Origin: Candidatus Omnitrophota bacterium
GTDB lineage: Bacteria > Omnitrophota > Gorgyraeia > B26-G9
DNA length: 59,155 bases
Assembly: GCA_018817165.1 (NCBI GenBank)
Contig: JAHITY010000005.1
Location: 1 to 59,155 of the forward strand
Reading direction: 5' to 3'
The notes under the pieces were generated by a model. The model had not been told where the DNA came from. It ran no database searches and saw only the letters and a program-made list of their open reading frames with translations. Positions 1 to 59,155 of the stretch are shown here, piece after piece. Both the position numbers and the translations under genes were made by a program. The stretch's first letter is position 1; the number at the start of each line of letters is the position of its first letter.

Positions 1-133
1 GCCAAGTGTAAGAAGAATTTCACAATCAAAGCAGAAGTCTTTGGTTAGTATTTAAAAACCATAAAACCGGACATTTCTACTTTGGTAAAAAGCGGACATT
101 CTTACTTTGGCTTGACAGCTATGAAGGCTATGG

Positions 134-162
134 TTGACATTTCCTAAGCCCAGTCTTACAAT
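134..162 (+). promoter_or_regulatory. sigma70-type promoter upstream of patatin-like gene
   Basis: TTGACA at 134-139, 17-nt spacer, TACAAT at 157-162, 45 nt upstream of ATG 208. Confidence 0.5.
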
Positions 163-207
163 GGTGTTAATTCATTTATAAAATCAATCAATAAACCAGG
201 GGAGCGA

Positions 208-6098: not shown

Positions 6099-6175
6099 GG
6101 GCGCGTAGCTCAGCTGGTTAGAGCACCTCCCTTACAAGGAGGGGGTCGTAGGTTCGAATCCTACCGCGCCCACCA
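6099..6175 (+). tRNA. tRNA-Val (anticodon TAC), CCA encoded
   Basis: Acceptor gggcgcg/cgcgccc, D arm gctc-agctggttaga-gagc, anticodon loop cttacaa, T arm gtagg-ttcgaat-cctac, 3' acca. Confidence 0.93.
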
Positions 6176-6276: not shown

Positions 6277-6353
6277 GGAGCTGTAGTTCAGCTGGTTAGA
6301 ACGTCGGATTGTCGATCCGAAGGTCGCGGGTTCGATCCCCGTCAGCTCCGCCA
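6277..6353 (+). tRNA. tRNA-Asp (anticodon GTC), CCA encoded
   Basis: Acceptor ggagctg/cagctcc, anticodon stem-loop tcgga-ttgtcga-tccga, T arm gcggg-ttcgatc-cccgt, 3' gcca. Confidence 0.93.
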
Positions 6354-21065: not shown

Positions 21066-21142
<77 letters not shown>

Positions 21143-22513: not shown

Positions 22514-22591
22514 GACGGCGTATCTCAGCCCGGTTAGAGAGAACGGCTCATACCCGTTATGTCGGTGGTTCAACTCCACCCGCCGTCACCA
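22514..22591 (+). tRNA. tRNA with CAT anticodon (elongator Met or lysidine-modified Ile2)
   Basis: Acceptor gacggcg/cgccgtc, anticodon stem-loop aacgg-ctcatac-ccgtt, T arm ggtgg-ttcaact-ccacc, 3' acca. Confidence 0.85.
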
Positions 22592-47415: not shown

Positions 47416-47610
47416 ATGGATAAAGAACTTAAGTTTATGAAAACAGCAGCGTTGATTTTTAAGGTCTTATCCTGGTTTTTTGTTGCGTTTTTTATTTTCG
47501 TGGCGATAGTTACTTTGCTGGGATTTGCAGATAATACTCCGCGAATTGGAAGTGTTGTATTTATAATTGGAGGAGCTTGGTTTTTTCTTGTTTTTTTACA
47601 GTATCAGTAA
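47416..47610 (+). CDS. small membrane protein, apparently truncated in TM2; the -1 frame continues to 47729
   Basis: SD ggaggt before ATG 47416. The stop falls inside a hydrophobic helix right after a T7 run; the -1 frame is open for 43 more codons. Confidence 0.5.
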   Translation: MDKELKFMKTAALIFKVLSWFFVAFFIFVAIVTLLGFADNTPRIGSVVFIIGGAWFFLVFLQYQ

Positions 47611-47756
47611 GCTTGAAGCTTATCGCTGATATTTCTGAAAATTCTCAGAATCAGGAAGAATCAGTACGAAAATTAAGCATTAAGCTTGATAAATTGGTTT
47701 CCTTACTCGAAGGAAAGCCTTTGGCTTAATATATTAAAATAAAACTTGTTAAAGCC

Positions 47757-47785
47757 TTGACAAACTATTGCATGGATGCTATACT
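47757..47785 (+). promoter_or_regulatory. sigma70-type promoter of the giant-gene locus
   Basis: TTGACA 47757-47762, 17-nt spacer, TATACT 47780-47785; about 290 nt upstream of the first ORF. Confidence 0.6.
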
Positions 47786-47834
47786 TTAAACATAAGAAAA
47801 CAATTTATAAAGTTTCAAAAAGTAAATTGTTTAT

Positions 47835-48055
47835 CCGAAAAGGCAAACCTGCTGAAAAGTGGGGACGTCTCGATCCTTTAATAAATGGGTCGTGACCGTG
47901 AATCCGAACGAAGTGAGTGGTTCACGGCAAAGCTACGGGTCTAAAGCAAAAGCAAGGATCGCCGAGCGCACCGATAACTTAATGCGACGATATGAGCTAT
48001 GATAGCCGAGCTACCGGAGTGTACGAATAAGTATACTTTGAGTGCGGTTTTTTTT
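47835..48055 (+). promoter_or_regulatory. structured 5' leader, candidate c-di-GMP-I (GEMM-I)-like riboswitch with terminator-like T8 run
   Basis: ggcaaacc-tgct-gaaa-agtg-gggacg (47842-47867) resembles the GEMM-I GNRA hairpin. Also acggcaaagc (47924-47933), caccgata (47969-47976), several hairpins and a T8 run at 48048-48055. Confidence 0.35.
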
Positions 48056-48073
48056 ATGTAAAGTGAGGATCTG

Positions 48074-48550
48074 ATGAAAAAAAGTTTCTGGTTTAAGATC
48101 ATTACGATTATAATAATCCAGGCAATTTTGCTTACCCAAGTAGAATTTGCTTTGGCATCTACATTCAGTAGTAAAGATCTTTGCCGGGAAGCTGCTTTAA
48201 AATATCAGAAAATAACCAGCAGAACAATCAGTTTGATATTTGGAATTGGTTGTTTGCAATTAAATTCCAGATCACGCCAATTAGATAAGCTGTTTAGTTT
48301 ACTTACCAGTGACAGTTTTAAGCTAGCAGAAAATGTATTAGCAAGTAAATCACATAACACTAGTAAAGACATTTATAAAGTTTTTGCTTTAACTGTTTTT
48401 AATTGTAATACAGTTAATAATCAATATGTTGCTTTAATTATAAATAAAGCTCAAGCTGCTGTTTGTTGGATGTCGGGAACTCAGGAATCCAGAGGTCCTC
48501 CAATGATTACAAAAAATATTGAATCAAATTTTAATAGCCGAATTGTTTAG
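48074..48550 (+). CDS. small anchored or secreted protein sharing the N-terminal WFKII motif with the giant ORF
   Basis: SD gtgagga before ATG; N-terminus KKSFWFKIITIIIIQAILLTQVEFALA. Confidence 0.55.
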   Translation: MKKSFWFKIITIIIIQAILLTQVEFALASTFSSKDLCREAALKYQKITSRTISLIFGIGCLQLNSRSRQLDKLFSLLTSDSFKLAENVLASKSHNTSKDIYKVFALTVFNCNTVNNQYVALIINKAQAAVCWMSGTQESRGPPMITKNIESNFNSRIV

Positions 48551-48596
48551 TTTAGCAATTCGGCTTTTTCTTTTTATCTTTAAGGGAGGTGTGGTT

Positions 48597-48941
48597 ATGG
48601 ATGAGAGACGCAGGTTTGAAAGAAATGGTGTTGAGTGTCCTTTACAAATTCAGGCAGTAGAAGCAGCGCAGTACATGATTAGAAATTCATTTTGCAATAA
48701 TGTTAGTCCAGTGGGCATGTCAATAACAACTTTTGATTTTTACCCGGTTAATGGAAAAGTGCATTTGAATTTACTTTCCAATACATTGACTAGCATGGTA
48801 GAAGCAATTGGCAGGGTTGTTTGGGTAAGAGAAATGCCGCATCAGAAAAGATTTAAAGTGGGTATAGAATTTGAGGATCCTAGTGAGAGTTTAATGCAAA
48901 AAATAAAAGCATTGATTTCTAAAAAATCAGAGAGGCAGTAA
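48597..48941 (+). CDS. PilZ-domain protein (c-di-GMP receptor)
   Basis: RRRFER (RRxxxR) followed ~25 aa later by NVSPVG (D/NxSxxG); SD agggagg upstream of ATG 48597. Confidence 0.75.
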   Translation: MDERRRFERNGVECPLQIQAVEAAQYMIRNSFCNNVSPVGMSITTFDFYPVNGKVHLNLLSNTLTSMVEAIGRVVWVREMPHQKRFKVGIEFEDPSESLMQKIKALISKKSERQ

Positions 48942-50993: not shown

Positions 50994-51022
50994 TATATTA
51001 AATATAAGGGGGAGGTCAAATC

Positions 51023-54000
51023 ATGTATGACCAAACAGGAAAACTGTGGTTTAAAATCATCGCGTTTATTGTGCTGGAAGCATTTCTATTTACAATTGCT
51101 GATGTTTCTTGGGCAGCTAATTATCGCGATCAGCGCGGCTCGCAGCAAATGGCGCTTGATTCTCAGAAAAATAAAAAAGAGAAAGATAATGTATCGGCTG
51201 ATGCTCTGAGCAATCAGTTGGTGCTTACCCAGCCGGCAATGCCTTATATGGGTTTTGGTCAAATTACCCCTCAAGGACAACAGGGATTAGAATCAATATC
51301 TTTAATTGATACAACGATTTCTGGTCTTTCAATTGCGGGTAATGATTTATCCGATATTTTTACAACGCTTAAGAGTTCGGGATGTTCAGTCAGTGAAGCT
51401 GGCTTTGGCGCGATGCGGCAAGGTTTTGCTAAAAAAGAAATATATCATGCCTTGATCAGCGCGGGATATGATAAAGATGAAGTTAAAACATTGCTGGGCA
51501 GTTTACTGAAAATGGAATCAGAAACAAAAAAACAAGATGAAGCAGCTGTTCAAACAAAGACCGGACCTCCCCAAGAACAGTCGGAACAGGATAAGACTCA
51601 GCTTAATCAAAAAAAGGCAATATTTGAAATCCCCAGTGTAACTGACCTTCCGATTGAAAAAGATGTGACAAAAATTGTAGAAAAAACAGTTCAACAAGGC
51701 GCAGTGCTTCGCCAAACAGTTGAATTTGTTCGTTTAATGATAAATGAAGGAAAACGCGGTAAAGAGCTTATAAAAATTCTTAAAAAAGCTGGACTAAGCA
51801 ATGAAAGAATCACTACAGCGCTCTCCCAATTAGGCTTTAATCTTAAAGATATCATAACTATATTAAAAGATTCAAATATTAGCTGCACGGATATAGTGCA
51901 GGCAATATATAATTCGCAAGTTAACTACAGTGATAAAGACATTTATACCGCATTATTAAAAGCCGGATTTTCCGATCAAGAAATAATTAATGCTTTAAGA
52001 AACGTGGGGATGAATGCCGCAGATATTTTAAAACTGACAACCGAGCTTGGCCGAAGTATGACGCAAGTTGCTGACGCAATGGTAAAAGCAGGATTTAATG
52101 TCGCTGAAATTGCCACTGCCTATGTGCTTAAGGCTATGCAGTGGACATGGGATAATTCAGTTAATGTTATAAATTGCGCGGTCAAAGCTTTTGACGCTTT
52201 TCTTAACAATGTCGGAAGGAAATTCTCTTCAAAACAAGATTTAGCATATGAGCTGATAGTTGATGATATTCTAGCAACCGGAGAAGTCCTGATTCAGAAT
52301 CAAGATGTTATGACCTCAATGGTCGCGATTAAGAATGTTGCCCAGAATCATGGTATTGATTTAGAGGGATATAATCTCAGCCTTAATAGTTTGCTGGAAC
52401 TTGAGGGTGTATCAGTAGTGCATTTGGATGGAGATCACTGGGTTACTTTAGTTGGTATTGATGGTGATCAGGTTACGATTATTGATAATGGCACAGAAGA
52501 AGTTATTTCACTTAGTGAATTTCAGATTCGCTGGGATGGAAATGTTTTAGCTTTTAATCAGCAGGAAATTAGTCAGGATAAATTGATTGATCTGCAGATG
52601 CGCGAGATTCGTGGCGGCAGGGGATTGCTGAGTGTTCTTACTTTAGGTCTTAGTGATGTAGTAGAAAAAGTAGTAGACGTCGTAGTTGATGTGGTTAAGA
52701 AGGTGTGGGATGTTATTAAGGTAGTTGTCATCGTTGTTGTCGCTGCGGTATTAACTTATGTAACTGCCGGAGCTTTAGCTCCGGTTTTTGTCGCGGCTTT
52801 TGCAGCTACAACAGCTGTCGCTGTTGCTGCTTGTACTGCATTGGCAGCTGCTGTTGCCAGCTTTGCCGTAACTTTTTGTATGGGAGTACTTCAAGGACAA
52901 TCATTTGGTGAGGCATTTAAAAGCGCGCTTATTGCTGGTGTGGTTGCCGGGATTGCTTCGGGTATTAGTTCATATGCTAATTTTAGTTCACCAACAGGGA
53001 CCCCAACCACAACAGGAGGTACTTCTTTTGGTGGGTCTGAAGCAGCAGTATCTGGTACAACCGGAGGTGCAGGAGCAGGTGCAGGAGCAGGTGTGGGTGC
53101 AGCAACTGGTTCAGTAGCTAGTTCAGCTGGTGGCACAATCTTAGGTGTAAGCACGGTTTCAATTGCTAATGCAGCTATAAGCGCGGTTAAACAAACTGTT
53201 GTGAGTTATGCCTTGACTAAGTTAATGGATGCAGCAGGGATTGATAATGTTTATTTACGAGCAGGGATTGTTGGCGCGGCCGGAGCTTGGGCAGGTAGTT
53301 CTGCTGGAACACTGAGTGTTGAAAATGGCAGTTGGAGCATGGCAACTGGGGAATTAATGACCTCGGAAATTGCCAAGCAAATGCTCACCGGAGCAGCAAC
53401 TCAAATTTCCATGGAAGCAATCAAACAACAAGGTTATAAGCAGGGATGGGATCCATTACTCACTGATGGTTTATCTTTGACTGTCGGTACTTTTGCCAAT
53501 ATCGCAACCAGTTCAGCATTAGACATATATAATGGCAAAGAAATAAACACAACAAAATTTACTAATCCGGCTGGTGATCGTTTTGATACTAATTTTTCTA
53601 ATTTATTTGTACAGAACTTTAAGTCATCTGTTGGAGAACTAATGGGCGCGTTAGCATCCAAAGCAGTTGACCGGATATGCCTTCAAAATAATGTCGATCC
53701 AATATTGTCTGCCGGATTATCTTCGATGAGTACAAGTCTTTTTACCAGTTTGACCAACTTTGCAGTAAATGATAGTGATTTTGGGATGACTGATATTGGT
53801 AATGCTTTGAGAAAAGGGGCTGGCTCTGCCATGGATGCAGGGTATAAAGATTATTTGATCAGAGATTTAGGTTATACTCAAGCCGAAGCCACTCAGACGG
53901 CATATGGAACTTCTCTTGTATTCAATATGTTCAGTCAAAATTTAGAAAAGGGAACATCCCCAACTCTTGAAAGCACAATCCAGTCACTTTTCAATGATGG

Positions 54001-57000
54001 GGTCAAGAGCCTTGGTTTTACCAATGAATATAATGGTTCATCATATAATCAGACAAAGTACTTAGATACATTTGATTCAGAAATAGATACTCTGGAATAT
54101 ATGATGTATGCCAGTGATGCAGGAATTACTCTTGATGATAATGGGGTATATCGTAATTCTGATGGCAGTGAAAACACTTATATGAATCGCAATAAAGCGA
54201 GAACAGAATATAATCAGTATTGGAAAGAGAAAAACCCGGAAGTTTTTGATCGTTCCTCTGGTACTGCTACTGCATCAACCGGAAATTTAAGTTTCGCTGA
54301 TGCTTGGACAAAAACTCTGGATACGAGAAATCTGAGCAATATGGCCACTCAATCAGCGGCTAATTTTAGTTCAGGGGTAACTAATTTGCAGACTTCTCTT
54401 GATGTTATCAGTATTAATGCCGCGACGATGAACACCGGAGTAGCGGCGAGTTTTGGTTATAATGGGGTTATTCAATTATCCCTTGCACAGGGAACAAATG
54501 TAAACCCAGCACAAGCAATGCAAAATCTGCTTAATTATGGCCAAAATGCGACAAAGATATATGGCGCTAATGGTAAACAAATCGTCGGGCTTATGTTTGA
54601 AAATTCTGATGCTTTCTTTCGCAATAAGGCATCAGCTTATCAGGCTGTAGATACAAGTACTCCTTGGATTAGAAATCAAAGAGTATATACCAGTGATACA
54701 GCTTATAAAGATGTCGGAGTCCAGGCAAATAGTATTAAAGATTTAGTGTCAAATCAAAATCTTAGTCTGGTTTCCTACAGTACAAATAGTTTTCAAACTG
54801 ATTTGCTGTCCATGGCTGCAACAAGTTCATTTGCTGTTAATGGAAGTGTTGTTTATGATCAGTTAAACAATATTTTTATGCTCCAGAATGCGACATTTAC
54901 CTCAGATAGTAAACAGGAAACCGTTGATTTTTCAACTAAGCTGAGCAATGGAGATAAAGTTTATTTTAGCGTTCAAAGCGGTAATGGGTTTAATAATGCT
55001 GTATTAAAAACCAGCGCGGCAAAAGACGCCGCGGTATATACAACCCGGGTAGACGGTGTAGCCAAAGAATTAAAGATCGGCGATATTACTTCCAAGGCCA
55101 GCGATAAGGTTTCTTCATTAGAAGTCGCGCTTACTGTCAGCGCCAGTGGAAATTTGAATTTAGAAAGTGCATCATTAAAAGATGCGAATAAAATATTAGC
55201 TTCTGAAAATAAGCTTGCAGCAGAGATTATTAACTTGCCTTCAGGCTGTATTGTGGGAAATACAACCTTAGAGTTAGCAAATTCTACAAATGGCTTGGCA
55301 GTGACTGCGGTAGAAAATATTGATTCTAATCGGAGCATTAAGTATTCCGGAGAAGACGCGAAAATAACCAGTAAAGCCCAGTTTGTTTATAACCGAGATG
55401 GGAAAATAACCTCAATTGTAAATAAGGATATTTCTGGTAAGAATCTTGGTGTAGATATTCAGACTCAAAAAGGAAGTATTACCCTTTTTGATAATCAGAT
55501 TTCTTTTGCTAATCAAAATAATTCTTTATTAACAAATCTAGGTTCTTTTTTTGGTATGAGCAGCGCGGAAGAGTTTACAATAATTAAAGGAGAAGCATTA
55601 GCGGCTACTAATTATCAAATAATTAATTCTGTGGAACAACAGCAATCTGGAGCAGCCGGCGGAGCCGGAGAAGCCCCTGGTCTTAATAAAATAATCCTGA
55701 TTGGGGATGCTAATGGCAATCAATACATTCAACAAGGTTCGATGTTTACAATCGAAAATAATAATTGGGCGGTTAAAGATAATGATGTAATTCATAATAA
55801 TAGCGGTAAAACAATAACCGTTAGCGGCAAAGCATTTGAAAACGGTGAAATAGCTGCTGTTCATAAGGGTAATATTTTTAAAGCAACAGTTGCTGATGAT
55901 GTCAAGGACCGGGAAAATATTGAATATAAACTTGATGTTAGTGGTTTTAATCTTAATCCCTTGAATATTATACAAGTTGCAGATACAGTGGTTTCTCTGC
56001 CGATCGGAGTAATGAATGCAAACGATATTTATCTTACTGACTCCGGGGCATTAACAATTACTCAAAATATTGCTTTGCAGGGACCTGATGTAAAGGGATT
56101 ATACATATCAGCTGCAAATACTACTTTTACTCTTAACTCAGATGGCAATCAGGCTTTAAAAACTGAGTTCAGTCAGATTGGATTAAGCGGGACTTTGGAA
56201 AATCAAGGCGCGGCTGGTCTAAAAGTCGGCAGTAATCAGTTGATTGGGAATACCCAAGTAGTAGATAATAATCTTTCGACTACAACTGCTGAAAGTAATA
56301 AGATAAAAATCAATGTGACTGAGGATGCCTCTTATTATCAAGGCGGGCAAGTAACCCTGACCAATAGCGGCTTGGTTTATAAACCATCAGATATTCTGGA
56401 AATCACAGGATTGGGAAGCAGTGCTCCGAACTTTAATGCTAATACCGAACTTTACAGCGGATCCTTTGTCAGCGTGGGAAATCTTAAGCTCACCACAGAT
56501 GGCAGTTATAAAATAACTCAAAACAGTGTAATGACCACAAACGCAGACAGCAAAATTCTGATCACACTACTAAATCAATCTGGACAAAATGTCGATACTA
56601 TCATGAATCTCCAAGAAGTCAGCATTCCAGAAACCAATAAAACAGTAGAGTATTCTACTCCTGATTTTCAGAATTTTAGTGAAGCAACCGCGGGAATGAG
56701 TTTTAGTACACAGGGAATTGAGTTTACAATTCAGGATAAAGGATTAAATAAATTTGAAGCACGCAGTCAGCCAATATCTGCTGTTGCCGCCATTGAGTTG
56801 AAAAATAAAGATTCGATTTCCAGTAAGATTGATTTCAAAGAAAATGTCGAGTTGACAATCAGCCCATTGGGCAGCATTGTTACCGCGGATAATGTAACTT
56901 TTAATCAGGTTAATACTCTAAAATCCGGAGCAGAAGTAAAAGTTAATCAGGACAAGTCGGTTGAGATCGTTAGCGGCCAAATTAATTTGGCGAAAGCTGA

Positions 57001-59155
57001 TGCGCTTAAAGGTCAAAATAGTGTAGCCACAATCCAGCCTGATAAAAATAAAGAGCAGAATAAAAAAGATAATGATACAAAACCAGTATATGTCGGAGAA
57101 GCTAAAATTGATCTTTTAGGAAATAATAAATATGACTTATATGGAGATCTGAGTTTTAATAAAGATTCAGGGGTTTATTTAGCAGATAATACAAAAGTTA
57201 CTATTAACAATTTAGCGAAAGATGGCAAGGATTTTGTTAATATTGGTAATACTCGGGCTGTTGCAGGAACTTTTGGCGTAAGCCAGGGACAGATAACCGC
57301 GATAGCAGGCGGCGCGAAGCTTTTAGAGCATATTACCAAAAGCGGTGAATATATAACTTTAGAATATAAAGGAACAAAACAAGTATCCGGAAAATCAATA
57401 GATCAAGGCTGGAAGATCAATGCCAGTCAGGCAGCAATTGACAGCAAAGAATCCTGGTCTGGAACAATTCAAGGGCAGTCAGTAAATTATAGTTTAGCCA
57501 AAAAGAACAATGAGACAATCATCCAGATCAATAATGGCGCTGGAGTAGAATTAAAAAATCAAACCCTTATTGGGTATGGGAATCAAGAGTTAAAAAATGT
57601 AACAGTATTCGCCACTCAGAAATTAGCTAATGGAAATTTTGTTTATACGACTACAGATGAAAAAGCAATTGGCTTTCAGCAATTACAGAGTACATCAGCT
57701 GGTGGACCAGCCAGTCAGATGCTGGGCAAAACAATTGTTAGTATTTCCGATTCTTTTGATAATGGGCAGAGGATAAGAACATATGGCGCTCAGACAAATG
57801 GCGCATTTTGCTTAACTTTTACTGCTGATAAGGAACTGAAAGGAATCAATGTAGCAGAACAATTGGCCGGCAGTTCATTGGAAATAGTTGGCAGTGGAGC
57901 AAAAGTCAATGGTGAGACATTTTTAAAGGGAGCAATAAGTTATAACTGGAACGGCAAAGAGATCGCCAGCAGTTATAGCAAGGGCACAACACTATTAGAA
58001 GCAAATACGAGTTATGGTCAGGTAACTCGAGAATATTTAGGAGCAGACAGTTGGAAGTTTAATGCCAGCCAGTCGGCAATAGATAATAAAGCAGTATGGA
58101 AAGGAACATATAGAAATCAGTCTGTGGACTATAATGTAGCTGATAAAAATGGTGAGACCATAATCCAGATAAATAAAGGATTAGGCCTAAAAGTAGAGAA
58201 TCAGACTATTGTTGGTTATGGCAAACAGGAATTAAAAAATGTAGATGTAACTGTAACCCAGAAATTAGCCAATGGACAGTTTGTTTATACAACAACTGAT
58301 AAAGACGCGATTGGCTTACAGCAATTACAGAGCACATCAGCCGGCGGCGCGGCTAGTCAGATGCAAGGCCGGACAATTGCCAGTGTTTCTGATTCTTTAG
58401 TCGGTGGTAAAACAGTCAGAACCTATGGGGAGACTTCAGTAAAAAAAGATGGAATTAATTTTGCTCTGACTTTTACCGCAGATCAATATCTTAGTACTGC
58501 GGTTAATGTTTCAGAGCAATTAGCTGGAAGTTATTTAGAGATCGCGGGTAGCGGAGCAAAAATCCAAGGCAAAGATATAATCAGCGGATCAATTGATTAT
58601 GCGGCTAATGACAAGGGAGTGGTTGTCGGAACTTTTAGTCAAGGCTCTGAACAATATCAGGGGACAATAAAAGGTACTAATCTCAAGGTAATCAGTGTAT
58701 ATAATGGCACAGTCAATGGTGTGGACAAAGGTTGGACAATGCAGTATCAAGGCATTGGGGTGCTCAAAGAAGGCGCGGCTAAATTTGATGTCCAAATAAA
58801 TGGCAAAACATTTGAAGCAACTTTAGTCAGTAGTCAGGAAGGGTATTCTGCGCAGATTAATCAAAATGTTGGTATGAATAAGGATTTCGTGGATTCCGAA
58901 GGCGGCAAACATGGTGATGTAGAACTATTCGCCACCCAGCTTTTAGCCAGTGGTAATGTTGAATACATGGCAAAAGATAAGGGTAAGGGCGATTGGAAAC
59001 AGGAAATCACAGCAGGTGTTGCCGGTGCGCAGATAAAATATGAAGGTGCTAATAATCTGAGCGTTAAAGATCAGATAAATGCTGATGGCAAAACAATCAG
59101 AACATATACTGCAGCTAATGATGGTAATTTCCAAATAGTATTTGTCGCGGACAGA
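51023..59155 (+). CDS. giant surface-protein gene, 5' part only (2,711 codons, no stop before the window end)
   Basis: ATG 51023 preceded by SD aagggggagg (51006-51015). I read the frame codon by codon to base 59155 and found no stop; only short antisense or out-of-frame ORFs appear in the track here. Confidence 0.9.
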   Translation, partial: MYDQTGKLWFKIIAFIVLEAFLFTIADVSWAANYRDQRGSQQMALDSQKNKKEKDNVSADALSNQLVLTQPAMPYMGFGQITPQGQQGLESISLIDTTISGLSIAGNDLSDIFTTLKSSGCSVSEAGFGAMRQGFAKKEIYHALISAGYDKDEVKTLLGSLLKMESETKKQDEAAVQTKTGPPQEQSEQDKTQLNQKKAIFEIPSVTDLPIEKDVTKIVEKTVQQGAVLRQTVEFVRLMINEGKRGKELIKILKKAGLSNERITTALSQLGFNLKDIITILKDSNISCTDIVQAIYNSQVNYSDKDIYTALLKAGFSDQEIINALRNVGMNAADILKLTTELGRSMTQVADAMVKAGFNVAEIATAYVLKAMQWTWDNSVNVINCAVKAFDAFLNNVGRKFSSKQDLAYELIVDDILATGEVLIQNQDVMTSMVAIKNVAQNHGIDLEGYNLSLNSLLELEGVSVVHLDGDHWVTLVGIDGDQVTIIDNGTEEVISLSEFQIRWDGNVLAFNQQEISQDKLIDLQMREIRGGRGLLSVLTLGLSDVVEKVVDVVVDVVKKVWDVIKVVVIVVVAAVLTYVTAGALAPVFVAAFAATTAVAVAACTALAAAVASFAVTFCMGVLQGQSFGEAFKSALIAGVVAGIASGISSYANFSSPTGTPTTTGGTSFGGSEAAVSGTTGGAGAGAGAGVGAATGSVASSAGGTILGVSTVSIANAAISAVKQTVVSYALTKLMDAAGIDNVYLRAGIVGAAGAWAGSSAGTLSVENGSWSMATGELMTSEIAKQMLTGAATQISMEAIKQQGYKQGWDPLLTDGLSLTVGTFANIATSSALDIYNGKEINTTKFTNPAGDRFDTNFSNLFVQNFKSSVGELMGALASKAVDRICLQNNVDPILSAGLSSMSTSLFTSLTNFAVNDSDFGMTDIGNALRKGAGSAMDAGYKDYLIRDLGYTQAEATQTAYGTSLVFNMFSQNLEKGTSPTLESTIQSLFNDGVKSLGFTNEYNGSSYNQTKYLDTFDSEIDTLEYMMYASDAGITLDDNGVYRNSDGSENTYMNRNKARTEYNQYWKEKNPEVFDRSSGTATASTGNLSFADAWTKTLDTRNLSNMATQSAANFSSGVTNLQTSLDVISINAATMNTGVAASFGYNGVIQLSLAQGTNVNPAQAMQNLLNYGQNATKIYGANGKQIVGLMFENSDAFFRNKASAYQAVDTSTPWIRNQRVYTSDTAYKDVGVQANSIKDLVSNQNLSLVSYSTNSFQTDLLSMAATSSFAVNGSVVYDQLNNIFMLQNATFTSDSKQETVDFSTKLSNGDKVYFSVQSGNGFNNAVLKTSAAKDAAVYTTRVDGVAKELKIGDITSKASDKVSSLEVALTVSASGNLNLESASLKDANKILASENKLAAEIINLPSGCIVGNTTLELANSTNGLAVTAVENIDSNRSIKYSGEDAKITSKAQFVYNRDGKITSIVNKDISGKNLGVDIQTQKGSITLFDNQISFANQNNSLLTNLGSFFGMSSAEEFTIIKGEALAATNYQIINSVEQQQSGAAGGAGEAPGLNKIILIGDANGNQYIQQGSMFTIENNNWAVKDNDVIHNNSGKTITVSGKAFENGEIAAVHKGNIFKATVADDVKDRENIEYKLDVSGFNLNPLNIIQVADTVVSLPIGVMNANDIYLTDSGALTITQNIALQGPDVKGLYISAANTTFTLNSDGNQALKTEFSQIGLSGTLENQGAAGLKVGSNQLIGNTQVVDNNLSTTTAESNKIKINVTEDASYYQGGQVTLTNSGLVYKPSDILEITGLGSSAPNFNANTELYSGSFVSVGNLKLTTDGSYKITQNSVMTTNADSKILITLLNQSGQNVDTIMNLQEVSIPETNKTVEYSTPDFQNFSEATAGMSFSTQGIEFTIQDKGLNKFEARSQPISAVAAIELKNKDSISSKIDFKENVELTISPLGSIVTADNVTFNQVNTLKSGAEVKVNQDKSVEIVSGQINLAKADALKGQNSVATIQPDKNKEQNKKDNDTKPVYVGEAKIDLLGNNKYDLYGDLSFNKDSGVYLADNTKVTINNLAKDGKDFVNIGNTRAVAGTFGVSQGQITAIAGGAKLLEHITKSGEYITLEYKGTKQVSGKSIDQGWKINASQAAIDSKESWSGTIQGQSVNYSLAKKNNETIIQINNGAGVELKNQTLIGYGNQELKNVTVFATQKLANGNFVYTTTDEKAIGFQQLQSTSAGGPASQMLGKTIVSISDSFDNGQRIRTYGAQTNGAFCLTFTADKELKGINVAEQLAGSSLEIVGSGAKVNGETFLKGAISYNWNGKEIASSYSKGTTLLEANTSYGQVTREYLGADSWKFNASQSAIDNKAVWKGTYRNQSVDYNVADKNGETIIQINKGLGLKVENQTIVGYGKQELKNVDVTVTQKLANGQFVYTTTDKDAIGLQQLQSTSAGGAASQMQGRTIASVSDSLVGGKTVRTYGETSVKKDGINFALTFTADQYLSTAVNVSEQLAGSYLEIAGSGAKIQGKDIISGSIDYAANDKGVVVGTFSQGSEQYQGTIKGTNLKVISVYNGTVNGVDKGWTMQYQGIGVLKEGAAKFDVQINGKTFEATLVSSQEGYSAQINQNVGMNKDFVDSEGGKHGDVELFATQLLASGNVEYMAKDKGKGDWKQEITAGVAGAQIKYEGANNLSVKDQINADGKTIRTYTAANDGNFQIVFVADR
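51758..52132 (+). repeat. about nine contiguous 14-residue repeats within the giant ORF (aa 246-370)
   Basis: GKELIKILKKAGLS NERITTALSQLGFN LKDIITILKDSNIS ... DKDIYTALLKAGFS DQEIINALRNVGMN AADILKLTTELGRS MTQVADAMVKAGFN VAEIATAYVLKA. Confidence 0.8.
52136..52558 (+). other. C39-like papain-fold cysteine peptidase domain inside the giant ORF (aa 372-512)
   Basis: VINC(385)AVKAF ... VVHLDGDH(472)WVTLVGIDGDQVTIID(488)NG ... EFQIRWDGNVLAF. Cys-His spacing is 87 and His-Asp spacing is 16, as in bacteriocin-processing C39 domains. Confidence 0.6.
52715..52972 (+). other. cluster of ~3 predicted transmembrane helices inside the giant ORF (aa 565-650)
   Basis: IKVVVIVVVAAVLTYVTAGALAPVFVAAFAATTAVAVAACTALAAAVASFAVTFCMGVL...ALIAGVVAGIASGI. 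Confidence 0.6.
57340..59155 (+). repeat. tandem 214-227-aa repeats at the distal end of the visible giant ORF (at least 3 copies, continuing off the window)
   Basis: Equivalent Trp codons at 57410, 58052 and 58733. Shared blocks: WK(I/F)NASQ.AID, ETIIQIN, GYG.QELKNV, TQKLANG.FVYTTTD, LQQLQSTSAGG.ASQM, RTYG, LTFTAD, EQLAGS.LEI.GSGAK. Confidence 0.85.

Follow-up and report, generated by a model that had tools for sequence, protein, structure and literature searches.

The 59,155-nt stretch of Candidatus Omnitrophota DNA analysed here (the window) carries a non-coding leader of about 288 nt, counted from the -10 box of its promoter to the ATG at 48074; all features described below lie on the plus strand. 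The promoter is of the sigma-70 type (47757-47785) and consists of TTGACA, a 17-nt spacer and the extended -10 element TGnTATACT, with 11 of 12 consensus positions matched and the TG present. It is also kept in the orthologous leaders. The promoter is followed by an aptamer, by a terminator with its U8 run, and by the RBS and start codon of the first gene (GAGGA and ATG, 48065-48076). The leader is more stable in folding energy than 199 of 200 dinucleotide shuffles (z = -2.8). Its 5' end is occupied by an 11-bp hairpin, called P0 (47798-47832), located directly upstream of the P1 stem of the aptamer. P0 is part of the minimum free energy (MFE) structure at every transcript length folded, and 99% of its cells are paired in nine orthologs, one pair being changed on both sides.

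The first gene (48074-48550) encodes a 158-aa protein with a signal-peptide-like N-terminus. This protein matched no Pfam or NCBIfam family, its relatives are found only in Omnitrophota-type metagenome bins, and the mean pLDDT of its predicted structure (40.7) is too low for a fold search. The next gene (48597-48941) codes for a 114-aa PilZ-domain protein of the c-di-GMP receptor family (PF07238, 39.8 bits against a cut-off of 22.5), as a first-pass annotation made from the letters of the DNA had recognised. The operon also has a giant gene with a C39-peptidase domain. A second conserved terminator-like hairpin is located after the first gene (48536-48565), so that riboswitch control of the PilZ gene and the giant gene is not a given.

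In an Infernal search against Rfam, positions 47832-48018 align with all of the c-di-GMP-I model RF01051 (positions 1-87) and score 39.2 bits, the gathering score being 35 bits. This corresponds to an E-value of 3.5e-4 when the whole 59-kb window is searched and of 2.7e-6 when only the local region is, and RF01051 is the top family within clan CL00126 for this leader. An intact GNRA hairpin does not contribute to the 39.2 bits, since Infernal passes over 79 nt at that place. Orthologous leaders were taken from other Omnitrophota metagenomes and share synteny (ROK gene, small ORF, leader, 158-aa gene, PilZ, etc.). Those free of the insert described below score 77.6, 77.3, 75.7, 67.0 and 64.6 bits with RF01051, and those that bear it score 41-43 bits. 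With respect to pairing, 95.8% of the cells of the aptamer model are paired in nine orthologs, a value reached by 0 of 500 shuffles, while slid controls give 29-46%. The first-pass annotation had suspected a GEMM-I-like leader upstream of the locus and had proposed both the Rfam search and the covariation analysis of homologous leaders; the two results bear the suspicion out, and the sequence elements that it listed all lie at or near where it had placed them.

The leader is therefore almost certainly an aptamer of the c-di-GMP-I class, and its ligand is very probably c-di-GMP. Taken as one statement, the reading of the leader as a variant class-I c-di-GMP riboswitch that works as an ON switch is probable. 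The riboswitch class is known and the structural variant is new: the leader (47832-48055) is an RF01051 riboswitch with two lineage-specific elaborations, a two-hairpin insert beside the GNRA hairpin and a second 3' strand nested in the P3 loop. Literature searches on Omnitrophota together with riboswitches or c-di-GMP-I yielded no account of this variant.

All parts of the aptamer core can be identified: G20, the GNRA hairpin with AAA/GAC, the A47 linker, the P3 receptor, the AG bulge (G83), C92 and a putative P1 of 4 bp. In this class G20, A47 and C92 constitute the ligand pocket, with a described role for G20, and C44 and G83 form a tertiary pair that is needed for Vc2 folding (PMC11705072). 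The 5' strand of P1 (UCCG, 47834-47837), whose partner is CGGA (48015-48018), is followed by J1/2 (AAAA, 47838-47841) and by the G20 equivalent at 47842. J1/2 is apparently one nucleotide shorter than in Vc2. P1 appears in the MFE structure once position 48018 has been transcribed (length 228). In the family, P1 closes a three-way junction; here its 4 bp are 97% paired in the orthologs, without covariation, and an alternative P1 exists that involves the tail of the nested strand; P1 length is critical in Vc2 (PMC11705072). The UCCGAAAAGGC motif recurs in unrelated Omnitrophota loci.

The segment GGCAAACC-UGCU-GAAA-AGUG-GGGACG (47842-47867) contains the canonical GNRA hairpin (P2/P1b, 47843-47866), composed of G21-C22, AAA, a 6-bp stem, a GAAA loop and GAC. 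The stem and loop, CCUGCU-GAAA-AGUGGG, occupy 47848-47863 (GAAA at 47854-47857), and GAC occupies 47864-47866, its last base being the C44 equivalent. Five of the six stem pairs show compensatory changes in the nine orthologs. The 2-bp base of the hairpin is closed by G45-C46 at 47927-47928. These open a segment (47927-47947, defined by the Rfam alignment) that also contains J2/3 and the P3 5' strand, called X (AGCU-A-CGG-GUC), with the receptor half UAAA and GC. The segment is invariant in the nine orthologs, including the AAA linker (GC-AAA-GC, 47927-47933) whose first A, at 47929, is the A47 equivalent. In the family a GAAA loop goes with a tetraloop receptor in the second hairpin, and here the positions of an 11-nt-type receptor, UCUAAAGC ... 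GCUAUGA (47940-47947 with 47996-48003), match the RF01051 model. The best-fitting P3 3' strand, called X'2 (GC-UAU-GAU-AG-CCG-AGCU), lies at 47996-48018 together with the P1 3' strand. It holds the G83 equivalent (48005), A48013, the C92 equivalent (48014) and CGGA (48015-48018), is 100% paired in the orthologs, and was picked by Infernal in the window and in all of them. The best-fitting 3' end of the aptamer is CUACCGGA at 48011-48018. By alignment to the model, which speaks to presence only, the pocket and tertiary nucleotides are G47842, A47929, C48014 and C47866 with G48005.

The c-di-GMP-I family has a 2-bp basal stem and a 6-bp stem with a highly conserved 3-nt internal loop between them (PMC1950547). 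At this locus the loop is not contiguous: AAA, GAC and the GC/GC base are kept, and GAC and GC are 60 nt apart, since two abutting hairpins (47867-47926) are inserted between C44 and G45, directly 3' of the C44 equivalent. GGGAC ends at 47866 and GCAAAGC starts at 47927. The separation had been noticed in the first-pass annotation, where it was put at about 55 nt. Hairpin A (GUC.CGAUCC ... GGGUCG.GAC) spans 47867-47896, and hairpin B (CGUGAAUC ... GGUUCACG) spans 47897-47926, adjoins G45 and continues into ACGGCAAAGC (47924-47933). It is this hairpin B, and not a second GEMM hairpin, that lies at about 47907-47927, where a likeness to the GEMM hairpin had been noted. Through the insertion of A and B the conserved internal loop becomes a four-way junction. 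Hairpin B has two compensatory pairs and 100% pairing among the four insert-bearing orthologs, and both hairpins are missing from orthologs L024, L026, L027 and L031, which have the contiguous form. An insert placed directly after C44 could impair the aptamer.

Inserts of the same type, 41-74 nt in size, are present in 21 distinct aptamers, mostly from Omnitrophota and two from Planctomycetia. A search pattern that required 40-75 nt between GGGAC and GCAAAGC retrieved 11 genome loci and 8 metagenome loci, with about 0.1 expected by chance (an estimate); the blocks GGCAAACC, GGGAC, GCAAAGC and CUAA in L002-L020 are imposed by this pattern and cannot count as separate evidence of conservation. 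Each of the 21 distinct inserts folds into exactly two hairpins that abut. When 20 of the inserts were compared with dinucleotide shuffles, their stability z-scores lay between -1.8 and -9.0; in 15 cases none of 200 shuffles was as stable. These energy z-scores were used in place of a position-anchored test for two flush 5-bp stems, which has low power: shuffles already reach about 8 of 10 pairs, and 13 of the 21 inserts reach 10 of 10. The stem sequences are unrelated between loci. We infer that hairpins A and B are structural expansions rather than ligand sites, because their loops are not conserved. The MAG JAZDHZ01 carries both insert-bearing and insert-free forms.

Two other descriptions of the insert were discarded. 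It is not a mobile or repeated element, since the window has no other copy and the inserts of different loci have unrelated sequences. Nor do the first insert bases generally close the GNRA hairpin locally, as RNAfold predicts for the window by pairing AGGC with GUCU: only 8 of the 21 inserts start with G(U/C).

The second elaboration lies in the P3 loop, where an insert (47948-47995) holds a near-duplicate of the P3 3' strand, called X'1, with its tail and a linker. X'1 (GC-AAG-GAU-CG-CCG-AGCG) occupies 47952-47968 and its tail CACCGAUAAC occupies 47969-47978. Within the tail is CACCGAUA (47969-47976), which had been likened to the 3' part of the aptamer; it is indeed there, but it belongs to the nested near-duplicate and is not the best 3' end. 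The duplication is visible as a direct repeat, D2 (47951-67 versus 47995-48011, 82% identity). In the canonical register X pairs with X'1 at 9 of 10 positions (about 0.14 expected) and with X'2 at 10 of 10. In ortholog L024, X'1 alone supports an RF01051 match of 63.1 bits, and X'2 one of 77.6 bits despite a 36-nt loop. X'1 pairs with X in short transcripts (length 190), and the linker of the P3 loop can fold back on X'1 (AUCG/CGAU and CGCA/UGCG). Being transcribed first, X'1 forms a compact, high-scoring fold with its own conserved ACC, and ligand binding there would favour termination.

The two strands differ in several respects. X'2 keeps the canonical AG bulge, with just one nucleotide preceding C92, whereas X'1 has CG for the AG bulge, shows an A.G mismatch at the P3 base and carries an additional nucleotide ahead of ACC. 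P1 formed with X'2 has a stability of -5.8 to -8.0 kcal/mol in eight of the nine orthologs, versus -2.6 to -6.6 for P1 formed with the X'1 tail. The latter clashes with P0 (-62.9 kcal/mol), while the P1 of X'2 does not (-70.0 kcal/mol). Covariation cannot separate X:X'1 from X:X'2, both about 96-97% compatible across the nine orthologs, because the columns are nearly invariant. With X'1 inside the P3 loop, the single 5' domain can take either X'1 or X'2 as its 3' strand, and the two resulting aptamer folds exclude each other. This arrangement recurs in at least five non-orthologous loci beyond the ortholog group. Perhaps, although we propose it only tentatively, X'1 is a decoy partner in the OFF state.

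The first-pass annotation had left the choice between a variant, a tandem arrangement and a different RNA. The variant is what the locus holds; a tandem does not fit one RF01051 match, one GNRA hairpin, one GCAAAGC junction and one 5' domain. Infernal alignments starting in hairpin A or B (L004, L010, L017, L021), which could be taken for a second aptamer, are artefacts of local alignment in which the GNRA hairpin is passed over.

The expression platform is an intrinsic terminator (48004-48055 in the full-length MFE structure), whose stem (48004-48049) leads into U8 at 48048-48055; the stem and T8 run had already been read as terminator-like. The lower stem is AGCCG/CGGUU plus GCU/AGU, and the upper stem is of 10 bp (CGGAGUGUAC/GUAUACUUUG). 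A simple terminator scanner made no call at 48004-48055, because the stem has internal loops. The terminators of the orthologs have 18-23 bp, with the upper stem 100% and the lower stem 87% paired, and L022 shows a linked change (CCAG/UUGG versus CCGG in the window). The terminator 5' strand overlaps X'2, C92 and the P1 3' strand. Single-copy relatives (L004, L011, L013, L017) follow the plain design, with one strand serving the aptamer on its 3' side and the terminator on its 5' side. The ON fold lies 9-12 kcal/mol above the terminated folds in secondary-structure energy, so that the switch must rely on ligand energy and kinetics. The binding window is about 31 nt here, and a GEMM-I ON switch functions with one of about 25 nt (PMC9262584).

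With moderate confidence we favour an ON logic that operates through X'2, in which c-di-GMP locks P1 and P3 and blocks the terminator. The 5' domain would fold first, with X transiently paired to X'1; X'2 would then displace X'1, and P1 (UCCG/CGGA) would close. On binding of c-di-GMP, C92 would pair with one guanine, G20 would contact the other and A47 would intercalate, so that P1 and P3 are locked. The locked fold would exclude invasion by the terminator and let RNA polymerase read into the 158-aa gene; putative read-through beyond it would reach PilZ and the genes further on. Without ligand, the 10-bp upper terminator stem would nucleate on free GGAGUGUAC and displace P1 (and X'2 in the orthologs), X would pair again with the X'1 region, and transcription would stop at U8.

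The opposite sense, an OFF switch, is unlikely. Under it the compact X'1 fold would be the ligand-binding aptamer (P3 with 47952-47968, C47971 as C92, and P1 as GUU(U)AUC/GAUAAC), X:X'2 would be a mere anti-terminator, and ligand would free X'2 for the terminator. Such a course fits the earlier transcription of X'1, its pairing with X in short transcripts and its 63.1-bit match. Its tail ACCGAUAAC is highly conserved and can form a P1 of 5-6 bp in the orthologs; in L003 the second copy is without the CC of C92, and in L005 and L015 the better partner is the first copy, which is also the one chosen by Infernal. However, in the ligand-free state unpaired GGAGUGUAC offers the upper terminator stem a site from which to form and to drive out X:X'2; in the orthologs the terminated fold is better by about 20 kcal/mol. 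The ligand-free state would then terminate too, and an OFF switch would give no regulation. The defects of the X'1 fold (A.G at the P3 base, the extra nucleotide before ACC, CG for AG) are themselves conserved, and its P1 must open P0. A local hairpin (CGG/CCG plus AUCGC/GCGAU) accounts for the ACCG of the X'1 tail, L031 has AUC in place of ACC, and the GCC of X'2 is conserved despite its position in an internal loop of the terminator.

Both folds might instead bind ligand with opposite outputs, X'2 giving read-through and X'1, at very high c-di-GMP, giving termination, in a band-pass or three-state device. A C92-type cytosine is kept in both 3' strands at most loci, both strands give RF01051 matches far above threshold, and the arrangement recurs outside the ortholog group. 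This dual reading is purely inferential and very unlikely: a non-binding decoy would account for the conserved defects of X'1 just as well, and the X'1 tail is explicable by local pairing. We know of no natural precedent for a dual-fold riboswitch with opposite outputs.

The insert on the C44 side or the short J1/2 might also have shifted the specificity towards another ligand, for instance 3',3'-cGAMP or a different dinucleotide. Small pocket changes are known to switch the ligand of GEMM-I clan members and variants (PMC9481103; PMC9262584), and cGAMP-type variants carry a change at the G20 position (PMC9481103). Here the pocket reads G, A and C (47842, 47929, 48014), which is the c-di-GMP pattern and is shared by the insert-free orthologs, RF01051 is the best model in its clan, and the neighbouring genes code for c-di-GMP effectors and turnover (PilZ, MshEN, HD_5 domain), all of which make such a shift highly improbable. 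Least credible of all is a decayed riboswitch, inactivated by the insert and persisting as a constitutive attenuator or stability element: the insert does adjoin a folding-critical nucleotide and Rfam scores drop from about 77 to about 40 bits with it, but the drop is an alignment artefact in which Infernal skips an intact hairpin, all core nucleotides are kept, the core is nearly invariant at 49-82% protein identity and the leader far more conserved than the protein downstream, insert-bearing aptamers precede typical c-di-GMP-regulated genes with matched terminators at 21 distinct loci, and both forms coexist in one MAG (JAZDHZ01).

The predicted ON switch resembles several known systems. With the Vibrio cholerae aptamer Vc2 (RF01051) it shares G20/A47/C92, the GAAA hairpin of 2-bp and 6-bp stems, the AAA/GAC loop, the AAA linker, the 11-nt-type tetraloop receptor of P3 and the AG bulge (C44-G83 equivalents), and with RF01051 members the 5' regulatory position before membrane and surface genes. 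Unlike Vc2 and RF01051, it has 60 nt (two hairpins) between C44 and G45, a P3 loop of 48 nt instead of about 8 that contains a second copy of the P3 3' strand, and a 4-bp P1 preceded by the extra 5' hairpin P0. The pilM-type GEMM-I ON switch of Geobacter (PMC9262584) also uses the aptamer 3' end as the terminator 5' strand and has a short co-transcriptional binding window (about 25 nt versus about 31 nt here), and its ligand-bound fold is the antiterminator, as proposed here. However, pilM senses cGAMP, with A as its G20-position base, and lacks both the inserted hairpins and the nested duplicate strand. The c-di-GMP-I OFF switch Cd1 of Clostridioides difficile is likewise transcriptional, with three competing folds (apo, antiterminator and terminator). 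Its ligand promotes termination, whereas the overlap of our terminator with the best-fitting strand argues for the opposite sense; a Cd1-like logic would fit here only if the X'1 fold were the sensor. Tandem c-di-GMP-I doublets and triplets (PMC9481103, PMC4759541) also repeat aptamer sequence in one leader, but they repeat whole aptamers, each with its own 5' domain, and here only the P3 3' strand and its tail are duplicated, nested in P3, so that the alternative folds exclude each other instead of standing in series. The survey of tandem riboswitches does not mention nested or shared strands (PMC9481103).

The most conserved hairpin of a textbook riboswitch thus tolerates an insert of 41-74 nt beside C44, a nucleotide essential for tertiary folding. 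The insert cuts scores from about 77 to about 40 bits, so that standard searches nearly miss members of the family; c-di-GMP regulons in Omnitrophota and related phyla are for this reason probably under-annotated. For instance, relatives L003 and L016 have no RF01051 match at the gathering threshold. The second, nested copy of the P3 3' strand points to an uncomplicated way in which evolution could re-wire or sharpen a riboswitch. There is a rather small chance that the two nested strands, each completing the one 5' domain in exclusive folds with opposite effects on the terminator, represent an undescribed strand-swap logic. If so, with both folds binding c-di-GMP or with X'1 as a purpose-built decoy exchanged co-transcriptionally, duplication of one strand would have produced a band-pass or a sharpened ON switch. 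In that case the two-hairpin module 3' of C44 would count as a riboswitch "expansion segment" that is confined to Omnitrophota and Planctomycetia.

The predicted riboswitch places c-di-GMP control before an operon of secreted proteins, PilZ and a giant C39-peptidase gene, in a phylum of uncultured, possibly predatory nanobacteria. A published survey of Omnitrophota giant genes noted adjacent pilZ genes and no riboswitch, and the leader would provide the first regulatory link from c-di-GMP to operons carrying such genes. Downstream of the expanded aptamers are genes for pilin-like N_methyl proteins, T2SSE+MshEN (PilB-like) ATPases and PilZ proteins, as well as for an HD_5/GAF/PAS (HD-GYP-type) protein and for Peptidase_C25 and FG-GAP surface proteins.

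A near-consensus promoter (TTGACA, 17 nt, TGnTATACT; 47757-47785) is separated from the ATG at 48074 by about 288 nt that hold no credible ORF. The elements of this leader described in the first-pass annotation agree with the sequence, and its suspicion of a GEMM-I (c-di-GMP-I) riboswitch was borne out by an Rfam scan. RF01051 matched positions 47832-48018 of the forward strand over the full model length with 39.2 bits (gathering score 35; E-value 3.5e-4 when the whole window is searched and 2.7e-6 when only the local region is), in an alignment in which Infernal skips two stretches, of 79 and 48 nt, at places to which the model gives 19 and 8 nt, respectively. It is the top family within its clan at the leader, and the scan matched no other riboswitch family there. 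The whole-leader fold is more stable than 199 of 200 dinucleotide shuffles.

The leader was mapped onto the numbering used for Vc2, the Vibrio cholerae class-I riboswitch, the roles of G20, C92, the C44-G83 pair, the tetraloop/receptor contact and P1a being taken from PMC11705072 and the hairpin description from PMC1950547. The closing helix P1 pairs UCCG (47834-37) with CGGA (48015-18) and is followed by J1/2 (AAAA, 47838-41) and the G20 equivalent (47842). G21-C22 (47843-44) are paired to G45-C46 (47927-28), next to the A47 equivalent (47929). The internal loop is composed of AAA (47845-47) and GAC (47864-66; C44 is 47866) on either side of a 6-bp stem with a GAAA loop (CCUGCU/AGUGGG, 47848-63). 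P3 consists of a 5' strand, called X (AGCU-A-CGG-GUC-UAAA-GC, 47931-47), and a 3' strand, called X'2 (GC-UAU-GAU-AG-CCG-AGCU, 47996-48012; G83 is 48005), the C92 equivalent being 48014. All family-defining nucleotides are therefore present and, judged by score and by every sequence feature, the leader belongs to RF01051. The canonical GNRA hairpin is intact, and the first of the two skipped stretches does not represent a degenerate hairpin.

In the founding description of GEMM-I (PMC1950547) the 3-nt internal loop is contiguous and highly conserved, whereas here its nucleotides are retained but split by two hairpins directly after C44. The extra nucleotides (47867-47926) lie at the very junction of GAC and the basal GC; the separation of gggacg and gcaaagc noticed in the first-pass annotation is real, but amounts to 60 nt and not to about 55. 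Folded alone, the insert forms two abutting hairpins, A (47867-96) and B (47897-926), at -21.6 kcal/mol (z = -3.3). On these sequence grounds the leader is a new structural variant of the c-di-GMP-I riboswitch. A literature search of one library, in which absence is not proof, found no paper that describes GEMM-I in Omnitrophota, or GEMM-I with such an insert or a nested duplicate strand.

When one genome per GTDB species was scanned for the conserved blocks, GGGAC and GCAAAGC being set 40-70 nt apart, 11 loci emerged, nine in Candidatus Omnitrophota MAGs (three in one MAG) and two in Planctomycetia MAGs; a JGI metagenome scan added eight, two of them duplicates. About 0.1 chance matches are expected for the 26-base pattern. 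The blocks are conserved by construction and give no independent evidence of conservation; no such constraint applied to the hairpins, downstream strands, terminators, 5' UCCGAAAA motif or Rfam hits (RF01051 at 36.7-50 bits in 13 loci). Including orthologs, 21 distinct aptamers carry the insert, which measures 41-74 nt and forms exactly two flush hairpins in every one. Compared with dinucleotide shuffles, the 20 inserts submitted gave z from -1.8 to -9.0, and 15 were unmatched by any of 200 shuffles. The stem ends vary by locus (for instance CCUGC/GCGGG, AUCCC/GGGAU, GCAAC/GUUGC and GAUUC/GAAUC) and the loops compared between loci have nothing in common: the module combines structural conservation with sequence turnover. 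A second insertion site exists in the family: two hairpins interrupt J1/2 immediately ahead of G20, with the 5' CCGAAAA on one side and GGC of the GNRA hairpin on the other (L029 1239-1503, the same as L030; L007 about 121-181, reverse strand). L007 bears both this insert and that of the A/B type.

Behind the other expanded aptamers are found pilin-like proteins (L005, L011, L013), T2SSE+MshEN ATPases (L012, L017), PilZ (L010), a PAS-GAF-HD_5 protein (L002), and Peptidase_C25-dockerin and FG-GAP surface proteins (L004, L015), which are typical members of c-di-GMP regulons.

The window sequence is an ENA metagenome contig. Ten homologs of the first gene (49-82% identity) were found, the named ones all from Candidatus Omnitrophica/Omnitrophota. 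Contigs of sufficient reach share the order ROK-family gene, small membrane ORF, leader, 158-aa gene, PilZ, ~220-aa gene and larger genes. Nine distinct orthologous leaders, that of the window included, align cleanly. Four of them (L024, L026, L027 and L031) read GGGGC-GCAAAGC without insert and score 67-78 bits against RF01051, and L029, with no insert at the A/B site, scores 64.6 bits; the window, L021, L022 and L028 contain A/B and reach 39-43 bits. What lowers the score is therefore the handling of the insert by Infernal and not loss of the core, and the alignment indicates that the A/B module is optional among close relatives. MAG JAZDHZ01 carries the insert-free L026 and, at a different locus, the insert-bearing riboswitch L006. 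The aptamer model pairs 95.8% of cells in the nine-leader alignment (equalled by none of 500 shuffles; slid controls 29-46%). Compensatory changes affect five of the six GNRA-stem pairs and two pairs of hairpin B; hairpin A was misaligned by MAFFT and carries no information there.

The 48-nt stretch in the P3 loop contains a near-duplicate of the P3 3' strand, called X'1 (GC-AAG-GAU-CG-CCG-AGCG then CACCGAUAAC, 47952-47978). The caccgaua element of the first-pass annotation is present, but belongs to the tail of this nested copy. X'1 is a direct repeat of X'2 (82% identity over 17 nt); in canonical register X'1 makes 9 of 10 pairs with X and X'2 all 10, and about 0.14 such sites arise in shuffled sequence. 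Both copies are present in all nine orthologs and in the non-orthologous L003, L005, L006, L012 and L015, the second being weaker in L009, L010 and L016. A tandem riboswitch of the kind surveyed in PMC9481103 can be dismissed: there is one 5' domain only, with its P3 3' strand duplicated. Truncated right behind the first copy, L024 is still matched by Infernal as a compact 84-nt aptamer (63.1 bits), and in the full-length leader the second copy is picked (77.6 bits) despite a 36-nt loop; a single 5' domain can therefore complete two mutually exclusive aptamer folds. Both pairing sets, terminator included, are about 96-97% compatible across orthologs, and covariation cannot rank them because the columns are almost invariant.

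Several observations favour the X'2 fold as the sensor. With X'2 the model score is higher, P3 is complete, one nucleotide precedes C92, the bulge is the canonical AG with the G83 equivalent, and the receptor half in the window is the canonical UAU; X'1 presents an A.G mismatch at the P3 base, one extra nucleotide before C92, a CG bulge and AAG. The P1 of X'2 is worth -5.8 to -8.0 kcal/mol in eight of nine orthologs, whereas that formed with the X'1 tail reaches -2.6 to -6.6; the UCCG strand of the X'2 P1 is also kept in unrelated Omnitrophota riboswitches, single-copy ones included. In comparable terminated states, X'1-P1 and X'2-P1 folds reach -62.9 and -70.0 kcal/mol, respectively. A local hairpin (AUCGC/GCGAU + CGG/CCG) predicted in orthologs can account for the conserved ACCG in the tail of X'1; the conserved GCC after X'2 falls in a terminator internal loop, where pairing gives no explanation and ligand contact is the only one. 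The X'2 P1 is clear of P0, the conserved 5' hairpin of the leader, which the X'1 P1 must open. P0 itself (11 bp, 47798-47832) lies directly after the predicted transcription start, is kept in all orthologs, overlaps the 5' strand of the alternative P1 that the X'1 tail would form, and may serve 5' stability or offer the short P1 a platform on which to stack.

The terminator (48004-48049, then U8) has stems of 5, 3 and 10 bp; in orthologs it is an 18-23-bp hairpin that uses up X'2 and its tail entirely, with a linked change in the lower stem of L022. In minimum free energy folds of the growing transcript, X:X'1 forms first (length 190), X:X'2 takes over at 215, P1 closes at 228, and from 258 onwards the terminator is formed and P1 lost. 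The upper terminator stem could always nucleate on GGAGUGUAC unless P1 holds CGGA, so that termination would be the ligand-free default, averted only by a ligand-locked X'2 fold. A transcriptional ON switch is thus a coherent and rather probable reading of the leader. Single-copy relatives (L004, L011, L013, L017) show the same terminator/aptamer design without the putative decoy X'1, and the interval of about 31 nt between completion of aptamer and terminator is close to the 25 nt determined for the pilM GEMM-I ON switch (PMC9262584). By secondary-structure energy the terminated folds are favoured over the ON fold by 9-12 kcal/mol, which leaves the decision to ligand energy and kinetics. Once the terminator takes X'2, X'1 could re-pair X and even the pocket GGC, which would stabilise and speed the OFF state. 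Alternatively, X'1 may itself bind ligand, as the match of truncated L024 would allow, giving OFF or band-pass behaviour; this is conceivable, with the X'2 features weighing against it. The duplication may convert an ON into an OFF design at some loci, and related loci suggest that it may be used differently: L003 has a second copy without the C92 cytosines, and in L005 and L015 the first copy is better. L013 (one copy) and L015 (two) share flanking sequence; the extra L015 copy lies within a 7-bp P3 extension (GGUAAAG/CUUUACC), and of the two copies in L015 Infernal picks the first.

The product of the first gene (48074-48550) is a 158-aa protein of no known family, with a signal-peptide-like N-terminus; its predicted structure was of too low confidence to be usable (pLDDT 41). 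The PilZ gene announced in the first-pass annotation was recovered at 48597-48941 (PF07238, 39.8 bits). A 12-bp GC-rich hairpin (48536-48575; AGCCGAAUUGUU...AGCAAUUCGGCU then UUUUUCUUUUU) overlaps the first-gene stop codon, its 5' strand being formed by the SRIV* codons. It is kept in all nine orthologs and resembles an intrinsic terminator or attenuator placed between the first gene and PilZ; it has UUCGGCU and a U-run in common with the riboswitch terminators of some orthologs, for example L026. Control by the riboswitch is therefore certain for the first gene only. After PilZ come two exported proteins of unassigned family and a giant ORF (51008-59155, called start 51023) of over 2,700 codons that continues past the window end. 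A Peptidase_C39-like domain lies near its N-terminus (about residues 436-519), and the homologous product in L024 has 5,354 aa. This N-terminus resembles those of the reported Omnitrophota giant genes ('Archaeovorins'), for which a preprint describes N-terminal C39 domains and adjacent pilZ genes, a riboswitch being unmentioned.

Upstream of the leader, orthologs have a 104-aa small membrane-protein ORF. In the window copy (47416-47729) one nucleotide is missing from a T-run, which divides it into a 64-aa ORF (47416-47610) and a C-terminal part in another frame, ending at 47729; either the frameshift is genuine and the gene a pseudogene, or the homopolymer was misassembled. The Rfam scan also found four tRNA genes unrelated to the riboswitch (6099-6172, 6277-6350, 21066-21139 and 22514-22588). 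A nhaA-I (Na+) riboswitch hit (47.2 bits, L017 5395-5452) lies on the same metagenome contig as an expanded c-di-GMP-I riboswitch.
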